A DNA stretch of 61,175 nucleotides, filler included, from Circinaria calcarea (lineage: Eukaryota), in assembly GCA_051942165.1 (NCBI GenBank). It is 17 parts of 17 records of this genome, joined end to end, with 100 filler letters (N's around TTAATTAATTAA, not from the genome) between each part and the next. Parts side by side here need not be neighbours in the genome. Positions count along the whole stretch, not along the records: positions 54,080 to 57,577 come from JAVECS010002795.1; 16 more parts are not named here. One strand, 5' to 3'. The stretch's first letter is position 1, and the number at the start of each line of letters is the position of its first letter. The notes beneath the pieces were generated by a model. The model did not search any database and was not told the origin of the DNA. It saw only the letters and a program-made list of their open reading frames with translations. Position numbers and translations under genes: made by a program. Shown here one piece after another: positions 3,517 through 61,175 of this stretch.

Positions 3517-3616
3517 NNNNNNNNNNNNNNNNNNNNNNNNNNNNNNNNNNNNNNNNNNNNTTAATTAATTAANNNNNNNNNNNNNNNNNNNNNNNNNNNN
3601 NNNNNNNNNNNNNNNN
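3517..3616. other. Artificial contig-joining spacer (44 N + TTAATTAATTAA + 44 N); first of 16 identical spacers
   Basis: The same 100-bp pattern starts at 3517, 7132, 10745, 14357, 17969, 21577, 25182, 28784, 32385, 35986, 39585, 43184, 46783, 50382, 53980 and 57578. The 12-mer puts stops in all six frames. Confidence 0.98.
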
Positions 3617-6441: not shown

Positions 6442-9400
6442 TTTGGGGAATCAATAGATGGAGGACGTCGAAAAGTCAGAAGTGTTGGCAGGAAGGAGAT
6501 GGTGTAGAGATTGCAGGATCTGATTCTTAGAGCTATCACCAAACAGGGCGCCCGACAGTAACTGTGAGATGATTAAAAACTATTATTGCGGGAAGCTAAA
6601 TATCGTGATATAAGTGGAGAGTCGTACTATGGAGTGTATATCTTGATACGTTATTTGTAAGGATCCTCTATGAATAATATAGTGATCTTACGAATAAGGG
6701 TCGGTAAACTATGTGATAATGTGCTCAATTGGTTCGTATCAGCGTGTGAATTATTGCTAAAGAGTTCTCGTGTAACGCTTCGCGAGGAAAACCTTTCTCG
6801 CTAAGCCAACACCTTGTGACCTCGGTGTATAGTTCCCCCATAGGGTTCGTAAGGGTTCTCGGGTAGAGCCTTCATATTTTTATAGGAAAATAATCCTCAG
6901 TCGACTTTCTTTGCACCCTGACGAACCCGGGCCGGCACCGAAAAAGGGAAAAAAAGTAGAAGTAAAAGCCAAGTACAAAACCAGGCACCTCCCGCCGCAA
7001 GCCGGGAGCTAAATGCCCTTCTTCTTCTCCCTCCTCACCCATCTCAATCCCACCCTCTCCGGATGCAACATCTCGACCAGCAACACCATTCCACTATCCT
7101 GAATCATACTCTTGATTCTACCCCGCGCGGCNNNNNNNNNNNNNNNNNNNNNNNNNNNNNNNNNNNNNNNNNNNNTTAATTAATTAANNNNNNNNNNNNN
7201 NNNNNNNNNNNNNNNNNNNNNNNNNNNNNNNAAAGGAGGGGGAATTTACCCCGGCCGTGAGCGCATAACCCGGCCGTGACTGGATATTCCTAGAGAAATT
7301 CGACCAAAATCTAAAGGTGATTTTCCACCTTCGCAGGCAGGGGGGGGGGGGAAGCAAATTATCAAGGTTACCCTCTTTTCGTTACTGATGAGCTTCTTCC
7401 GCCGGAAGGGAATGGATGGCAGATAATTTGTGCGACTCCAGAGATGAAGATTTATTAGGTTAGAAAGTTAACGCTACCATCTAAAGCTGAACCATCGACG
7501 AATAAGAACAGCGGATATGAAATTGGAACTTGTGCTCCGTGCATATCTGGTTATTATTAGCTTTTTCGCCCTTTACCGAGGTTATGATGATAACCGACGT
7601 CAGGCGATGAGCAGGTCGCATCTATACATTGTGTACCTCCATCTACCAACGCCTTTCCTTTCCTTTTCGAATTCTCTGCAGGACTAATAGTAGTACCCTT
7701 CATACCTAAACACCCAATCTTTCCTGGGCTTAATTCTCCTAGCTAGTCCTTTAAAAAAAAAACTTAGGGTAAAGACTCCATGTCGGGGCTTTTCGAGACG
7801 CATTATTTGTTTTTTTAAATAACAAGAGATATATATAATACCTGTAAATATACAGCCTATGATAGGTAAAAACAACTCTCAATAGAATATAGGCTCCCTG
7901 CTATCATTCGTATCTGTTTTTTTCCCGGTATATAGAAACCACCCCTAACCTACCACCAAAAAAACCAAAAGATAGCCCCGTGTCCTCTCTGTGCAAGCAA
8001 CTCTCGTGGACGTTATGGTATAGCTCTCGTTTTCGGGTTCTCGGTTCTACAGTAACGTTACCATACTATAATAACGCCCATTTGTTGTGTCTTGGGTACT
8101 TGGGGAACTTTGGATGAGGTATCTTAGCAAGCTTTGGCAGCAGCGCTCCCATACCATACCATACAAAAACTGGTTAACTGGGCCGTTCGAGAACTCCCCG
8201 CTTTTATGATCAAGCGGAGCCTTTCCTTTGTTACTTACTCTGAAGCGGGGTTGGTTTGGTTTGGTTTTAACCTCAACCGGTACGATAATAAACTGTGGAC
8301 ATCCAAAAGTTTTCCAAGGGAAATAATAAATTCCCTAACCACGAAGTTTGGTAGATAGATAACTCAACACTATGGAAGTCTTGGATTATTATTACATTCT
8401 TGATTACCGAACCCGCTTCTGCGCCCCAATACCCCTGCCCTGAGGCCCCTGCCCTGAGCCGGTTAATAATAGCCACCTACTTGTACCTGCAAAGAATGCG
8501 TCTTGGGTAGTGGGGTAGTTAAGGTGGTACCCGTAGTCTGAAGCGATGCGTGCGCTTCGTTTTGCCATTTTTGTGGGGAATTCTCGATGGTGTGGGGTAA
8601 GGGGAAGGGAAGGCAACAAGGTCGTTCAGATTCTATAGAGTTTTCTATGAAAAAAGTCGGGTGAAACTGTGGGAGAGAGGAGCTTCATGGAGTATGGTAA
8701 GACCTAAGGTCTAGAGAATCAAGAGTGACGGTTTAGGGAGGGGCTTATGATACCCCGGATTTCCCATAAAAAGATGCCGAGAACTCCTGCGAGATTTTCC
8801 TTTGGGGTTATGGTAACTCCGTTTTCCAAATTTCGCGAATCTATCTCTCTCAAAGTACCACATATGGCAAACTACTCCTAACCCAGAAAAGGCATACCTT
8901 ATTGTTTATTTTAAAAAGACCCTATATATGACTTTAGCAGACTATTTGATCAGGTTAAAGTGACAAAAAGCTACCCGGTGATATAGTACTTTTCCGGGCT
9001 GCAGTGGCAACTCATCTCGCTTTACTACGACCGTTATATGTTCGTCTGTCCCGCAAAATCAAGGCGGTTTCGATTCGGTTTCGGAGAAGAAGATTATGTC
9101 TAGCATCATGAAGAAGTCTTGCATTTGTCACTCTGTTGGTTACGACTAAAGCCGACAAGTTCTGTGGTCGGATCTCTGGCACTGTAAGCATGGACGTTTT
9201 GCGGCCGCGACGCTTTTTGCTCTCTTCGGGGTCTCGTGTCCGATTATTTCGTGACAGTCATCCGTCAGACGTGACGGGAAACGTTCGGATTATAGGACGC
9301 AGTGGGAAAGGCTGTCGTCAATGGAAAGAGATAGATAGTGAAAGTAGGGGTAGGTTTTGGATGGAGTTATCGCACAACAAAGAAAGCATTTCGAGGAAGC

Positions 9401-53028: not shown

Positions 53029-53443
53029 TCACACACCCTTCTCCACCCCATCCGCCTCTCCCCTGGTCACTTTCTTACCCGTCTTCTTAATCTTCTCCAG
53101 CACGCTCTCATATTCGACCCCCTCGGTGGCGATGATATCGGCCGATTGCGTCTCCAGCGAGACGGTGTAGGATTGGATTCCTGCGTGCGTACTTGAGCGT
53201 TAGCGAGAACTTTGCGCTCAGAGGGAGGAAGAGGAGCAGGGTGCGGGGTTAGTGTAAGTGCAAGTAGGTGAATAAAAGGACTTGGATGGCAAAGGTAATA
53301 AAGGAGTTGAAGAGAGGGGAGAAAGACATACCATCCATCTTCTTCAGTACGCGCTCGATGGCGCCGCTGCAGCCGGAGCAGTTCATGTTGATGGCGAATT
53401 TGTAGGTGTGGGTCGTCGGGGACGAGGTGGTCGTTTCGGCCAT
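53029..53443 (-). CDS. ATX1: Copper chaperone Atx1 (HMA domain); 2 exons
   Basis: HTYKFAINMNCSGCSGAIERVLKK (MxCxxC), intron 53331-53181, ...VLEKIKKTGKKV (KTGK motif). Confidence 0.95.
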
Positions 53444-54079
53444 TTTGCGGCGAAGGTGGGCGTTGGATAAGTGGTGGTAAGTTGGAGGATGAGGGGATTT
53501 CTACCGGCGTTTATGTACACGAAGGTGAGGTCGAGAAGTACGTTGTAGAAAAGAACCAAAAAAGGGCTTCTTCACGTCAGGCGGCAGTCGAGGTGAATCA
53601 TTGAATACGGGTTTAATGCGCTCCAAGCATCATGCATTTTTCCGATTTCTCAGCAGAAACAAATCAAAGTGAACTAGGCATATTCAATATCCTTTGCAGG
53701 GATAAAGAGCGATGATGATGGCGTGAGAGTTGCGCCGGCATTGGGTTGCGCTAGGCTAGCGTAGTGATCAAATGTCTTGCATCAGGGGGAGAATCGGTCA
53801 CCGCTCAGTATTCCTAATCCCTCTTCTTAAATCATTACCAGCATTTCGCTCCCTCTCTTGCTCCCCTTGCGTGGCTTATATCGCATAGGTAGCGGAACGA
53901 AACAGCAAATAAAATCTACCTACCTTTACCGCTCCCATACGCATACCTCCACACCCCTATCAAACCCCTTCCCCTTCTCNNNNNNNNNNNNNNNNNNNNN
54001 NNNNNNNNNNNNNNNNNNNNNNNTTAATTAATTAANNNNNNNNNNNNNNNNNNNNNNNNNNNNNNNNNNNNNNNNNNNN

Positions 54080-55157
54080 GCAGTTGATTTGGCCACCCAG
54101 GAAGAAAGCTACCTTGCCCTCGGCGTTGAATAAGGGAGCCACGTAAAGGAGATTCCAGAAAGGCTCTCCGTTCTTCCTGTAATTGAGCAGAAGTTCTACC
54201 GACTCTTGATTTGCGTTGATAGCTTCTTTCAAACGCCGTGAAGCAGATTGATCCGTGTACCTGCCTTGGAGGAAGCGACAGTTCCGCGGGATAATGTCGG
54301 GTCGGGAGTATCCCGTCACTTTGATGAATCCGTCCGATGCAAATACAATCGGATTATCAGCTTTACTGAAAGGGTCAGATCACATGTCAGCTTCTAGTAC
54401 TTGAATCGAGCTGGCTGACCATTGCGAGAATACTTACGTGGGATCGGTCAGACAAAAGCAGTCGCCGAGACCTCCGTATTTTGCACGTGCCGTTGACAGC
54501 GCTTTTTCAGCACTGACAGTCATCTGATGTTTCACAAAGCGTGGGTATATGTCAGTTGCCAGCATGTTCTCGATGCACAATTGAGCGTCGGAAAAAATCA
54601 ATTCCATTGACGGAAGGGTGGTTAAGGTGGTTTGCTTGATGTCCATGTTTATCCTCTTGATCAAGGCTTGAGATATGTTCAGCTGCCTGGGCGCTTCGAC
54701 CGACGTAAAAGAATGATGAATGTCTGACATGACCTTTGTCAACTCATCGAGCAAGGTATTGTAGCGGTCTACCTGTTCCGCAGAGTCAGCGACAAGCCTC
54801 CGCCTACCTCCTGGAACGTACCTTTTCTAGGAACTCCATGTTCTCCCCGCAGAAACGCGATTGACTATAGCGGAGAAGCTGGTGGGACGTGGCCGGATTG
54901 TGCAGGACGATTTGGAAAATCTCCGGACTGAAGATATCAGCAACGCCGGTTGAGGGCGGATCGCTCCTGTCGCTTTGCTTCTGGGTTGATGCCACGGAGG
55001 TATCATCGTGGCTGATGGAATGATTTCTCTCCATGGCTACATGCTGCCACTTTTGGGGCTGGTGGTTGGATTCGCCCGTCGCGCCGGGCGGTCGTAAACC
55101 CGTTGGGCTGACGAGAGTGTTATTCTCATGATCGGCAAGCTGGTTTGGCCCGAGCAT
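54080..55157 (-). CDS. RGS-LOV blue-light photoreceptor (BcLOV4-type), 3' truncated
   Basis: RGS-like region (IFQIVLHNP...FCGENMEFLEKV...QLNIS...DIYPRFV) followed by a complete LOV core: FCLTDP..ADNPIVFASDGF.KVTGY...IIPRNCRFLQG...LLNYRKNGEPFWNLL..APL...FFLGGQ. Introns at about 54820-54772 and 54437-54367. Confidence 0.93.
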
Positions 55158-56569
55158 CTCTCAATCTCTCATCAAAGGCACAGGCACACTGACAGTTTGA
55201 CGCAAGAGAGACTTCGCAGTGCGTACCGAATTCAAAGAATGGGCGAACACATCTTGACGCCATCAGGTAATCATGCAGCACGAAAGAATACCCGAGTAGT
55301 ACAAGTAACTGCTCGACCACCACCATCGTAGCTACACCGCTAACCCCTGCTACATGGTATCGTCTCAATGGATTCGATGGCGCGGGAAATGTTTCCGGGG
55401 TGGAAAGCCCTCATCAGCGCTCGGCGCTCTAGTCCCGCGCAATACAGCTGAGCTTCCCTGCAAAAGTCAAATTGGCTTGGACCAATTGTCGGCTCCACTA
55501 GCCCAAAATCAAATGATACCAGACTGCCAATCGGTACGTCGACAGCCACGTAAAAACATTCGAATTAATAAAAGCAAAGCGGGCATCTGCAGCCAATATT
55601 GTCTCGCCACGAAAGACGCAGGCTCACGGTCCGCCAATCTCCTGAATTTACAGTCATTACTGTGTGATTGAAGAGAGCAGCCTGCAGACTCGGGCAAGAT
55701 GCGATGCATCCCTCGGCAATCTCGCAGGAGGAAGGAAGCCACGTGCTACTGTGCCTTCGTACGGTAGTATTTCGGACTGCATATACAGTACATGTACTCG
55801 TTGGGTACCACCTTATCTTTCTCAAACATGCCGAACCTTCCATGATGCACCTCATCTCATCTTTCCATTATGCAGAAGGGAACAAGGGATAGCAGCGGCC
55901 CGAATCTGCAGGCTGCGTCGTCAAATAAGCGATAGGCCAGCCGGTAGGGGCGATGAAGTAGAGGGTGTCCTCGGGACAGCATCGATCGTCAGCCATTTTC
56001 AAAATGAATGCCGTTCGGAGGGACTTCCGACTGGTATCGGCCTTGTCGTGGCCGACAGTCGAAGGATTCGAAACGTTGCCGTTCATAGGGTGGACCAGAC
56101 AATTCGATTCGGGCGTAGCTCAGGGTATCGAATTGGGGAAGAAAGGATTTGGGGGGGGGAATGGATTGCCGCCGTGAGGCTGGAATCCTGCGAGATTACG
56201 CTAAGGCTAGTGCTCATCTGCAGGCCCCTCCCCGGTTTGAGGATTTATAATATTGACGGTGGTACGCTGCAACTGCCAGCCACCAGGCGACTAAGGCTGG
56301 TCGGTTCCAGTGGACAAGGGTTCCGTGTCGGGTCTATCGTCACTAGAGGTCACTAGGGACCGAGACGGCGTGGTCGACGAAATTGTGACATGCATACAGA
56401 TTTCTTCCCCAAATCGAAATATAGCAGGCATCCTGTTTGGTAGAGGTGGAGATAGGTAGCTAAAATTGATTTCTGAAGCCTTTGCTGGTCCTTATCAACC
56501 CTTTGACCGTCATGAGTATATCGCTGGAGACGAAAAACATTACTTGAAATTTCCAATCAGAATAGTAGA

Positions 56570-57577
56570 ATGATGCAACCGCACAAGGCCGACAGTCTGG
56601 TCAATGGTCCGCAGCCGGGGGGGCCTCGAGTCCAATTAACCCCGCGCGGGCGTATCGTTCAAGATGATCGTATTCCGGAGGTCCCACATCTTCCAGACGG
56701 CTATCAGAATGCTCCGAACAGACAAGTGTCGGGAGGCTTACAGTCGCATCCAGTAAGGCTCGACAAAGACCAGAGGCTAGGAAAGGGAGACCACGCCCCG
56801 ACACTGACTCGGTTCCTTTCTCGTACCAAGTTGGTCTCCTACGTTCTGTATCAAAGGGGATGTACTGACAGGAGACACGATAGCAGCAACAAGGGCCAAA
56901 TAAAGGCCATCATCCGCGTTGACGATTTCTCTGAGCCGATGAGCTCAGGGAATGAGTCCGCTTCGTCCTCAAGCGAGTCTAAAAGCACACGTGCTAAACC
57001 GTCACTACCACCTGCGTATGCATCTCCGCAATCGAAGGCCACGATCAAAAGAGAAAGTGTCGATCAAATGCTGGAAAGCTATGACCTTGACGCCCCGGTC
57101 GAAGACGGGCACAAACTCGAGTCGCTCGAAGTTATTTCCGAGCTGCTATTCTCTGCCGAGCACCTGAGGACCATTTTCGCAGATCCATCCTCCTTGCTCA
57201 AGTTTACACTGTTCCTGGGTACATACAGACCCCGTTCGGTACCGACCCTGATCTACTATCTGGACGCCACAAAGGCATTGAAAGCTATTAGCTATGCAAA
57301 TGCTATTGCGTCTGGGCTCGAACCGGTATCTGGACAAGGCCTAACACCCATTGCGACGAGGACAGTCAACTCCGATCTCGAAGAAAAGGCCGAACGTGCA
57401 TTCAACCTGCTTGTACAGAATGACTTACCGGCATATACCACCCATATCTACATTCAAGTCATCACAGCAAGTCGGTCGAGGCCGGCGACGGAGACAAACG
57501 GTCCACATGCGCAGGAATCATCAGACGGATTTGCCGAAGTATTCTGTCTCACAGATCCATCGCGACAAGATAACCCG
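56570..57577 (+). CDS. Second LOV-domain photoreceptor with divergent RGS-like N-terminal region, 3' truncated at the start of LOV
   Basis: LFSAEHLRTIFADP...KFTLFL...LIYYLDATKALKAISYANAI...AFNLLVQNDLPAY...GFAEVFCLTDPSRQDNP. The last 12 residues are the first strand of a LOV domain. The 5' exon structure is uncertain and the photoactive Cys is beyond the contig end. Confidence 0.8.
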
Positions 57578-57677
57578 NNNNNNNNNNNNNNNNNNNNNNN
57601 NNNNNNNNNNNNNNNNNNNNNTTAATTAATTAANNNNNNNNNNNNNNNNNNNNNNNNNNNNNNNNNNNNNNNNNNNN

Positions 57678-59060: not shown

Positions 59061-61175
59061 CTACCGACCATCCGGACTGTTGCTTGGCCCCGAAACAGTC
59101 CTCTTTCCCCACCCACTGAAGAAGCCACCGCCCGACGGAACTGCCGACGCAGGCTTTGGAGGGTCTTGCACGCTCTTCAACGCCGATCCGTACGACACCC
59201 CTGGTGACCCGGGACTTTGGCCTCGACCACCGGCGCCAGGAGAGGCCGGGGTGCCACTCAACAGCTTCCGGAGAGAGTCGAGTTTACTCTTCACTTCTTC
59301 CAGTTCTTGCTTGGCAATCGCCTCCCCCGTCTTCGAATTGACCAACTCCAACAACAACGCCTCCTCGCCGACAGGCTTAAGGTCGGGGGTGGCCAAGAGG
59401 CTCTGCGTACTTAGACTGCTCATCCTCTTCGAGAATACCGGTCCGGGCTGTGCGGTTGTCACGGGCGGCAATCTTCCAAGCTTAAATTCACGAAGGCCAG
59501 GGGAAGGGGCATGTTCCGCAGTTGCCGAAGTAGGGGAATCAGGAGAATCAGGAGGTCCCGACCTGCGGTTCTTGAGATCTTGTATGCTCCTCTCTAGTCG
59601 CTGTTTCTCCCGACTGTTCTCCTGGAGGCGAGATCGCGCATCGCGGAGTTGCTCCTTGACCTGCACGGCTTCCCGATCTCGCTCAGTCAGCTGTCGCGAC
59701 AGATCGGCAGATCGAGCTGCTTCTTCGTTGTATTGATCCTTCCATAGTGTGACATCGTCTCGTAATTGATGCTTGGTTTGTAAAATTGAAGATCGCTTCT
59801 TAGCGATAGTTGTAAAGTGCTCTTCCAAAACTGTGAAGCTCTCCTCTAACACTACGAAATTCTCTGTAATGTCGTCGGATACAAAACACTCATCGTTTAG
59901 CGATGTTGCATCATCTTCTGAGACGGCAGCCAAGGTTTCTTGCTTCTTGACCCGACTAATCACTTGCCGGACAACGTTTCGATCCTCATCGCGTTCTTCG
60001 CGCTCTCTCTGAAGCTCACTTGCCAAAAGCGTCTGTTCCCTTTGCATGTCACTCAAAGCTGTCAGAAGATCCTCAATCTGAATATGGAGGTCTTTATCCT
60101 TATTTGAAAGGGCGACTCGGGTCGTTGTGACAGTGCCAGTCTTAGTCAAAATTTGCTTCACGGGGACCCAGTCCGCAGACATCTGCCGTGACACATTGGT
60201 AGCGTCAGTGGAAGATGTACTTGCACTGGTGTCTGCACTTTCAACGGAGTTGAGCGTAGAGGCCATGCTTTGCTTGGACGGAGTTCGCCGAAGGGAGCTG
60301 AGTGGTCTTGCTGGCGCTGAAAGTGCTGAATTCGATGAGTTGGGCTTAAGTGCCGTGCTAGATCCGGCCCAAAAAGCGAGATGCAGCAGAGTGAATGTTG
60401 GGCTTGGATACAACAGGCGACATTGCATCTTCGTTATGAGCCTCTTTGAAGCTTACCTCAAGCGACTGTAAGCCATCGCGTGTGACAAGTCCAGTTAAAC
60501 CACAGAAATCATTGACTAATTCGTCTGCGTTACATCCATAAGTATCCCACAGCCCACGTGATAGTAGAAGCTGCATTATGTCTTCAAATTCTGTAGTAGC
60601 CAGAATCTTTTTCTCGTTCCTCCGCATTAGTGAAAGAGCAACCCGCATCAATGTCTCAGAGGCACCTTCGGTCAGTATAACATCATAAATGCGCAGGAGC
60701 ATCGGTAAAGGACAAGTGACACCAAAGAAGGACAGAAACCATTGGGAGAGATACAGTGGTTCTAGCTTCAAGTTATCTAAATGTGCTGTAAGCTCTGGAA
60801 GATGCTGGCCGAGCAGATGCTGAAATTGATAAATCCGAAGATGAAGGCCAGATAGGTCCGGCAAAAAGCATGACCGTAAGTCGTAGTGTTTCATCAGACT
60901 TATTATATGTTAGTTACTAGCGTCTCACAACAAGAATATAACAAGAATATATCAACCCACCGAACGAGTACACAAAAGGCCTCCTTGTCGCCCATATGCA
61001 TCAACAATGGGCCAACAACGAAACCGAGTCCCTGGCAATATCCGATTTCTTGATCCCAAAGACTAAAGGCGTTCAGAACCTTGCCCAGCATCTTCTGCCC
61101 TTCTCCATTCGGGTCCCTGAACATATCCACTCCAGGGAAACTTCGGCCGATGTCTTTGCCAATAAGCTTCTCGTA
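59061..61175 (-). CDS. TBC-domain Rab GTPase-activating protein (Gyp5/Evi5-like) with coiled-coil tail; 5' truncated, apparent frameshift near 60371
   Basis: IGKDIGRSFP (R finger), IGYCQGLGF (Q finger), EAFCVL, YLSQWFLSFF, LRIYD, then a coiled-coil region with ELVNSKTGEAIAKQELEE in a different frame. Confidence 0.88.

Follow-up and report, generated by a model that had tools for sequence, protein, structure and literature searches.

A BcLOV4-type RGS-LOV gene adjoins a lineage-specific BcLOV3-type paralog in lichen-forming Ostropomycetidae

In the lichen-forming fungus Circinaria calcarea (Megasporaceae, Pertusariales, Ostropomycetidae), a single 3498-bp contig of a metagenome-assembled genome (MAG) carries the 5' halves of two divergently transcribed genes for flavin-binding blue-light photoreceptors. 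Gene A, on the minus strand, encodes an RGS-LOV protein of the BcLOV4 type, and gene B, on the plus strand, is assigned to the BcLOV3/LovA family (hereafter LOV3). We consider it probable that these two genes, both of known photoreceptor families and the second a lineage-specific LOV3 paralog, have kept their microsynteny, with a divergent promoter region of 1.4 kb in common between them. The contig makes up exactly positions 54080-57577 of the window, the whole 61,175-nt stretch of DNA that was analysed. In this 61-kb window 17 contigs, from 3516 down to 3498 bp and ordered by decreasing size, are joined by N44-TTAATTAATTAA-N44 linkers, with spacers at 3517-3616, 7132-7231 and so on up to 57578-57677. 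Since the window is an artificial chain of contigs, neighbourhood across a spacer carries no inference, and the segments flanking the contig belong to unrelated contigs. A partial protein in the public records, 'MAG: hypothetical protein Q9187_007950, partial [Circinaria calcarea]', is 100% identical and is likewise encoded on a contig of 3498 nt. The start codons of gene A (55157, minus strand) and gene B (56570, plus strand) are separated by 1412 bp in head-to-head orientation. Exon structure, Pfam matches and this spacing bear out the claim of a first-pass annotation of the stretch that two LOV photoreceptor genes lie head to head on one contig. The features are the following.

53980..54079, no strand: artificial spacer N44-TTAATTAATTAA-N44, parting the contig from the unrelated previous contig
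54080..57577, no strand: the whole 3498-bp MAG contig, with an identical deposited partial protein
54822..55157, minus strand: gene A exon 1, starting at the ATG and 112 codons long, with a low-complexity N-terminus and the first RGS helices (tblastn of ortholog N-termini, E down to 1e-77)
54773..54821, minus strand: first intron of gene A (49 nt, GT..AG), containing CTGAC as a branch-like site
54438..54772, minus strand: gene A exon 2, the remaining RGS domain and the linker to FCLTDP (Pfam RGS, E 7.5e-8)
54366..54437, minus strand: gene A intron 2, 72 nt, GT..AG
54080..54365, minus strand: gene A exon 3, the LOV core with PRNCRFLQG, the contig ending after GGQINC (Pfam PAS_9, E 2.1e-18)
55158..56569, no strand: intergenic region between the start codons, 1412 bp, the presumed divergent promoter and 5' untranslated region
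56570..57106, plus strand: gene B low-complexity N-terminal part, residues 1-179, collinear with relatives P0125 and P0126; low predicted local distance difference test (pLDDT) values at the start of the model
57107..57478, plus strand: gene B helical domain, residues 180-303, six helices in the model, pLDDT mostly >90; the signature domain of BcLOV3/LovA
57527..57577, plus strand: first part of the gene B LOV domain (GFAEVFCLTDPSRQDNP); the contig stops short of the flavin-binding Cys
57578..57677, no strand: artificial spacer, parting the contig from the unrelated next contig

The frame of gene A exon 2 matches the Pfam RGS domain (PF00615; E 7.5e-8, 33.2 bits versus a cut-off of 23.9), and exon 3 matches PAS_9 (E 2.1e-18) and contains IIPRNCRFLQG, so that the adduct-forming Cys is read directly from the sequence. 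Gene A is indeed the minus-strand RGS-LOV gene with a PRNCRFLQ motif that had been described. A search with the exon-2 frame returned 183 proteins at E ≤ 0.001. Among the best 120 of these, the named proteins are nearly all RGS plus PAS_9 proteins of 500-600 amino acids, originate from Lecanoromycetes, Leotiomycetes and other groups, and share 50-82% identity with gene A exon 2. In a 37-protein tree, gene A falls inside a clade with Trapelia, Lambiella and seven Xylographa species, which has 99% support in the Shimodaira-Hasegawa-like approximate likelihood-ratio test (SH-aLRT) and a short stem of 0.18. Its place in this Ostropomycetidae RGS-LOV clade, together with the short stem, identifies gene A as an ordinary BcLOV4 ortholog of the class combining RGS, LOV and a domain whose function is unknown (DUF). 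As in BcLOV4 and other proteins of the RGS-LOV-DUF class (Botrytis cinerea Bcin02g04390; MoRGS5; Fusarium LovB; PMC6099885), the RGS domain immediately precedes, on the N-terminal side, a LOV domain bearing the Cys motif. Gene A differs from BcLOV4 only in having its membrane-switch part off the contig; otherwise nothing sets it apart. In BcLOV4, blue light exposes a polybasic amphipathic helix located between LOV and the C-terminal DUF; the helix attaches to anionic lipids of the membrane, an attachment that the RGS domain inhibits in the dark (PMC6099885). The contig holds the first 319 codons of gene A, with the J-alpha helix, polybasic helix and DUF lying beyond its end at 54080. The 17 aligned RGS-LOV orthologs carry a basic stretch of FFKSFR type and a conserved C-terminal block, the DUF.

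Starting with the ATG at 56570, gene B stays open for 336 codons until the contig stops at 57577, where it breaks off in GFAEVFCLTDPSRQDNP. Its two closest relatives, P0125 and P0126, align with the whole 336 residues in one stretch (2-336 versus 1-336), so no intron needs to be assumed. The piece in the window has no Pfam match, RGS at E ≤ 1 included. Exhaustive searching with phmmer gave 415 relatives at E ≤ 0.001, 96 of them at E ≤ 1e-30. PAS_9 follows directly after the helical domain in all 12 long relatives, scoring above the Pfam cut-off in 11 and 26.2 bits versus 27 in the remaining one. GRNCRFLQG is present in 9 of 10 aligned relatives, Pro replacing Cys in the other, and the LOV domain is followed by an acidic linker and then by a conserved block at the C-terminus. 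A profile built from 17 family members recovers 'Bclov3 [Botrytis cinerea B05.10]' at E 2.7e-280 and 1240 proteins at E ≤ 1e-30. On the strength of this profile match gene B is assigned to the named BcLOV3 family (LovA in Fusarium), and in the 60-row tree described below it is positioned within that family, apart from the RGS-LOV outgroup. A Fusarium review characterises BcLOV3/LovA as LOV proteins 'without recognizable domains' which have so far received very little attention (PMC10056346).

The first-pass annotation had taken gene B, too, for an RGS-LOV gene. This did not survive: none of the 17 family members matches Pfam RGS even at E ≤ 10, by which an RGS-LOV assignment on sequence profile was ruled out. 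Its remark that the gene B Cys and both C-termini lie outside the contig was accurate.

In position before LOV, in size (~124 residues) and in having six helices, the N-terminal domain of gene B is nevertheless like an RGS domain (PF00615), but it is without a Pfam RGS match and its fold scores are not separated from those of unrelated helical hairpins. An AlphaFold2 model of residues 150-336, calculated from a 67-row alignment with a mean pLDDT of 81.5, predicts the six helices. In Foldseek, the top rows obtained with this model were mostly RGS domains, the best of them, RGS17, being a weak match (E 0.79, template-modelling scores 0.34/0.45). VIA-align placed RGS7 first (Z 7.0, root-mean-square deviation 3.4, 82 aligned) and listed three further RGS domains, with scores level with those of many unrelated helical hairpins. 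Profile-profile comparison of the N-domains matched the first 35 columns weakly to the RGS start of RGS-LOV (E 0.011, probability 3.9%), and an earlier comparison had given E 0.023 over 25 columns. An RGS-like fold of the gene B N-domain may be taken from the model as a weak lead.

Within the LOV3 family, gene B stands apart from the canonical members. In a 60-row tree rooted on RGS-LOV it groups, at 99% support and on a stem of 0.59, with seven Xylographa proteins, Lambiella, Icmadophila, P0127 (Ptychographa xylographoides) and two further fragments; together these are hereafter called the pair clade. A 27-row tree calculated without the window's gene B fragment and with five pair-clade rows recovers this clade at 100% support, on a stem of 0.93. 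Second LOV3-type genes of Xylographa are found on other contigs (MMC32_000699, MMC17_003490, MMC27_007957, MMC26_006830 and MMC15_001844), and these second copies fall, in the 60-row tree, inside a 97% clade of canonical Lecanoromycetes LOV3. Many clade-specific substitutions distinguish the pair clade in all three domains, for example GFAEVF in gene B versus GLAEVF in canonical proteins. Complete pair-clade models keep GRNCRFLQG as well as the conserved Asn, Asn and Gln of the LOV core, the Cys being present in all five rows shown, and pair-clade relatives are without the basic FFKSFR-type helix.

We identify the gene B clade, from alignments and trees, as a separate, fast-evolving LOV3 paralog seen only in Ostropomycetidae. 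Gene B shares with BcLOV3 (Bcin10g03870) and LovA the family helical N-domain running into FCLTDPSR-DNP, and its relatives have in common with them the Cys-bearing LOV domain and the conserved block at the C-terminus. It differs from canonical BcLOV3/LovA in belonging to a separate long-stemmed clade with its own substitutions, and members of this clade adjoin RGS-LOV and coexist with canonical LOV3 in Xylographa. The gene families themselves are known; the Ostropomycetidae LOV3 paralog clade and its adjacency to RGS-LOV are new here. One lichen lineage bears an additional LOV3 gene, which evolves fast and in every case adjoins RGS-LOV. Our literature search, conducted mostly without subscription journals, found no paper describing either the pairing or the extra paralog.

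Two peculiarities of individual LOV3-family sequences may be mentioned. The protein P0173 has Pro at the position of the adduct-forming Cys (NPRFLQ) and is possibly a light-blind member. The Xylographa gene B models P0129, P0274 and P0276 miss three residues in the LOV core relative to Lambiella, X. parallela and Icmadophila, which is probably due to a mis-set splice site in the annotation rather than to a true deletion.

Whether the pairing is absent from relatives of C. calcarea had been raised in the first-pass annotation; it was found in all 8 Xylographaceae species examined. Linkage was read from NCBI locus tags and from the contig data given with the matches, for species in which both genes are named. 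The pairs are listed below, gene A first.

Xylographa soralifera: MMC17_001772 and MMC17_001771, consecutive, same contig
X. vitiligo: MMC15_006881 and MMC15_006880, consecutive, same contig
X. opegraphella: MMC26_001493 and MMC26_001494, consecutive, same contig
X. parallela: MMC32_000196 and MMC32_000197, consecutive, same contig
X. bjoerkii: MMC18_005484 and MMC18_005483, consecutive, same contig
X. trunciseda: MMC11_003553 and MMC11_003554, consecutive, same contig
X. carneopallida: MMC34_007319 and MMC34_007317 + MMC34_007318 (split model), consecutive, same contig
Lambiella insularis: MMC13_008403 and MMC13_008404, consecutive, same contig

The pair-clade LOV3 gene consequently adjoins RGS-LOV in 8 of 8 named species (Xylographaceae, Baeomycetales) and in 9 of 9 when C. 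calcarea (Pertusariales) is counted. The contigs bearing the pair in these relatives measure 66-656 kb and come from eight independent assemblies. Cluster look-ups of the remaining pair-clade fragments, through which Ptychographa was named, yielded no additional linked pair. In none of the 16 named comparisons does a canonical LOV3 gene lie next to RGS-LOV. In Piccolia, Loekoesia, Psora and Caloplaca ligustica the two genes have distant tags and are on different contigs; in Mollisia, Phialocephala and Cadophora they are on contigs of unequal size; and the second LOV3 copies of four Xylographa species are on contigs other than that of gene A. Published gene identifiers point in the same direction: LOV3 and RGS-LOV are unlinked in Botrytis (Bcin10g03870 versus Bcin02g04390) and Monilinia laxa (EYC80_002606 versus EYC80_003150) (PMC7827745), and the LovA and LovB identifiers of three Fusarium species are far apart (PMC10056346). 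Diplocarpon rosae and Lasallia pustulata were left out of the count, as their A and B entries possibly stem from different assemblies.

A scan of 80 metagenome LOV3 loci, 79 of them of canonical type and 31 with more than 3 kb upstream, gave no match to RGS-LOV N- or C-termini at E ≤ 1e-5, whereas the same queries match the window at E 1e-44 to 1e-77; the sole pair-clade locus (L062) has just 484 nt upstream, so the scan is uninformative on pair-clade orientation. For Circinaria, Lambiella and Xylographa the gene A and gene B trees agree in branching order, in keeping with vertical inheritance of the pair. The linkage is real and has been handed down vertically. The adjacency would have arisen a single time, no later than in the common ancestor of Pertusariales and Baeomycetales, and have been passed on from there.

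The two neighbours are themselves distantly related. The pattern G-x4-FCLTDP-x3-DNP, noted at the outset as a junction common to both genes, is indeed found in gene A and gene B; it is mostly the first strand of the LOV domain, and such a first-strand pattern at the LOV start is general to LOV domains. By profile alignment with hhalign, the LOV domains of the two families match at E 4e-43. Their C-terminal domains match at E 6e-7 (probability 92%, 96 columns) with large profiles and at E 2e-5 with small profiles, cross-controls giving E 0.13-0.33. The full-length LOV3 and RGS-LOV profiles align collinearly over 412 columns. We conclude from these alignments that the C-terminal block of BcLOV3-type proteins is homologous to the BcLOV4 DUF and that, both LOV and C-terminal domains being homologous and the profiles collinear, LOV3 and LOV4 are to be read as old paralogs with the same three-part layout. 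The linker after LOV is acidic in LOV3 and forms the basic lipid-binding helix in RGS-LOV. With homologous C-terminal domains, LOV3 looks like a sibling of RGS-LOV in which the basic membrane helix and a recognisable RGS domain have been lost. No paper describing the C-terminal homology was found in the same literature search, and we offer it, as read from profiles, as a modest new point.

The divergence of the two genes is correspondingly deep. In the Lambiella pair, BLASTP detects similarity in the 111-residue LOV domain alone, at 49% identity, and a branch of length 5 parts the two families in trees. At the DNA level, no inverted repeat between genes A and B was found in the contig, the best arm pair being 22 nt at 73%. 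The earlier view of the genes as ancient paralogs, and not as products of a recent inverted duplication, is upheld by all three observations.

For the product of gene A we infer, by homology, that a Cys-flavin adduct would form in blue light and that this adduct would lead to release of the polybasic amphipathic helix predicted behind the LOV domain. By analogy with BcLOV4, membrane recruitment might then follow, the released helix binding anionic plasma-membrane lipids and the RGS domain being brought to G-alpha. The product of gene B would consist of the helical N-domain, LOV, the acidic linker and the C-terminal domain homologous to the BcLOV4 DUF. Its pair-clade relatives keep the LOV photochemistry residues and are without the FFKSFR-type helix, suggesting that it is probably a soluble LOV sensor signalling via its own N- and C-terminal domains and not a membrane switch of the BcLOV4 kind.

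The intergenic region (55158-56569) contains no recognisable gene, its four longest open reading frames being without Pfam match at E ≤ 0.1, and the consecutive locus tags of the relatives leave no gene model between the pair. GATCGA is a light-response hexamer of Neurospora. No enrichment of this hexamer was seen: the region between the genes has a single site, and the window as a whole has 35 versus 36.5 expected, which is chance level. Expression data for related genes are available from other fungi. A light pulse given to B. cinerea induces every blue-light receptor gene except bclov4, and the induction of bclov3 (log2 fold change 2.4) depends on BcWCL1 (PMC10218500). In F. fujikuroi, LOV3/LovA is photoinduced via WC-1 and the RGS-LOV gene is hardly light-regulated (PMC10056346). 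As proxies, these data point away from simple co-regulation and from the White-Collar independence proposed in the first-pass annotation, and would limit the idea of a joint module. Any regulation shared by the two Circinaria genes is hypothetical.

The most serious alternative to conserved microsynteny of two known photoreceptor genes is that the pair constitutes a functional two-sensor module, in which one bidirectional promoter would drive both genes and the products would act together, for instance as a LOV/DUF heteromer, the LOV3-type paralog tuning the membrane recruitment of RGS-LOV or its regulation of G-alpha. Paralog and adjacency co-occur perfectly (9 of 9 in the pair clade versus 0 of 16 for canonical LOV3), and the A and B trees agree in the order of Circinaria, Lambiella and Xylographa. 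Moreover, the proteins share homologous LOV and C-terminal domains, which are typical contact surfaces in PAS proteins (PMC6099885), and BcLOV4 itself oligomerises (PMC10410727). However, the two families are regulated differently in Botrytis and Fusarium, and the linked sample is narrow, with 8 of 9 species from one family, Xylographaceae. In fungi, a single conserved neighbour pair over such a distance is nothing unusual. On balance we regard such a module as unlikely, if worth keeping in mind. Should the linkage be functional, culturable Ostropomycetidae mycobionts would be the place to seek a natural partner of RGS-LOV; should it not be, what remains is ordinary conserved microsynteny of two known photoreceptor genes.

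A bolder form of the same idea holds that the Ostropomycetidae LOV3-type paralog evolved as a dedicated partner of RGS-LOV, expressed from one bidirectional promoter and forming a mixed complex through the LOV and C-terminal domains that would determine how the membrane-recruited RGS protein responds to light or temperature. We consider this speculative and distinctly unlikely. BcLOV4 is a widely used optogenetic tool; to our knowledge its native role and partners are not known, and BcLOV3/LovA has never been characterised. If true, the dedicated-partner proposal would provide the first natural partner of a BcLOV4-type photoreceptor.

The pair might also be a relic of the founding duplication, that is, the original inverted tandem duplicate from which the LOV3 and LOV4 families descend, kept only in Ostropomycetidae, with canonical LOV3 as a later relocated copy. 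Both families have the same three-part architecture, and the tree topologies were compared by approximately unbiased (AU) tests on the 27-row set, both constrained groups having been named after the tree had been seen. A tree in which the 19 canonical rows are held together as one clade, with the pair clade basal next to the RGS-LOV outgroup, was not rejected (0.5 log-likelihood units better than the free tree, p-AU 0.55). Equally unrejected, however, was a duplication inside Ostropomycetidae, with the pair clade held together with the second Xylographa copies (delta lnL 1.43, p-AU 0.29). The basal position of the pair clade is also what long-branch attraction would produce, given a pair-clade stem of 0.93 and an outgroup branch of 5. 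A relic would further require many independent losses in all other sampled Pezizomycotina classes, and we hold this origin to be highly improbable. Finally, a chimeric join of two unlinked loci, conceivable in a very fragmented metagenome-derived assembly with 3.5-kb contigs, is very unlikely, since both orthologs are consecutive on the long contigs of eight independently assembled relatives.

Several points weigh against our preferred reading of a lineage-specific LOV3 paralog in conserved microsynteny with RGS-LOV. The LOV core and Cys of gene B and the polybasic helix and DUF of gene A are off the contig, and these features rest on relatives. For the relatives, linkage consists of tag order, and the head-to-head order is known for Circinaria alone. 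The trees were built by a quick method with SH-aLRT support only, and their backbone is unresolved. The proxy expression data concern canonical LOV3, not the pair-clade paralog, in species in which the genes are unlinked. The adjacency, although conserved over two orders, may be neutral, or it may be under more selection than this reading credits.

Minor observations were made on the flanking contigs of the window. The previous contig carries a short frame with a heavy-metal-associated (HMA) motif at 53249-53500 on the minus strand, which is copper-chaperone-like and matches Pfam HMA at E 5.9e-5, slightly below the curated cut-off. On the next contig, part of a gene with a RabGAP-TBC domain lies at 60358-61175 on the minus strand, in two exon frames with Pfam E-values of 7e-32 and 7e-20. 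A long Ser/Glu-rich, coiled-coil-like frame without Pfam match is located 3' of it on the same strand (59061-60452).

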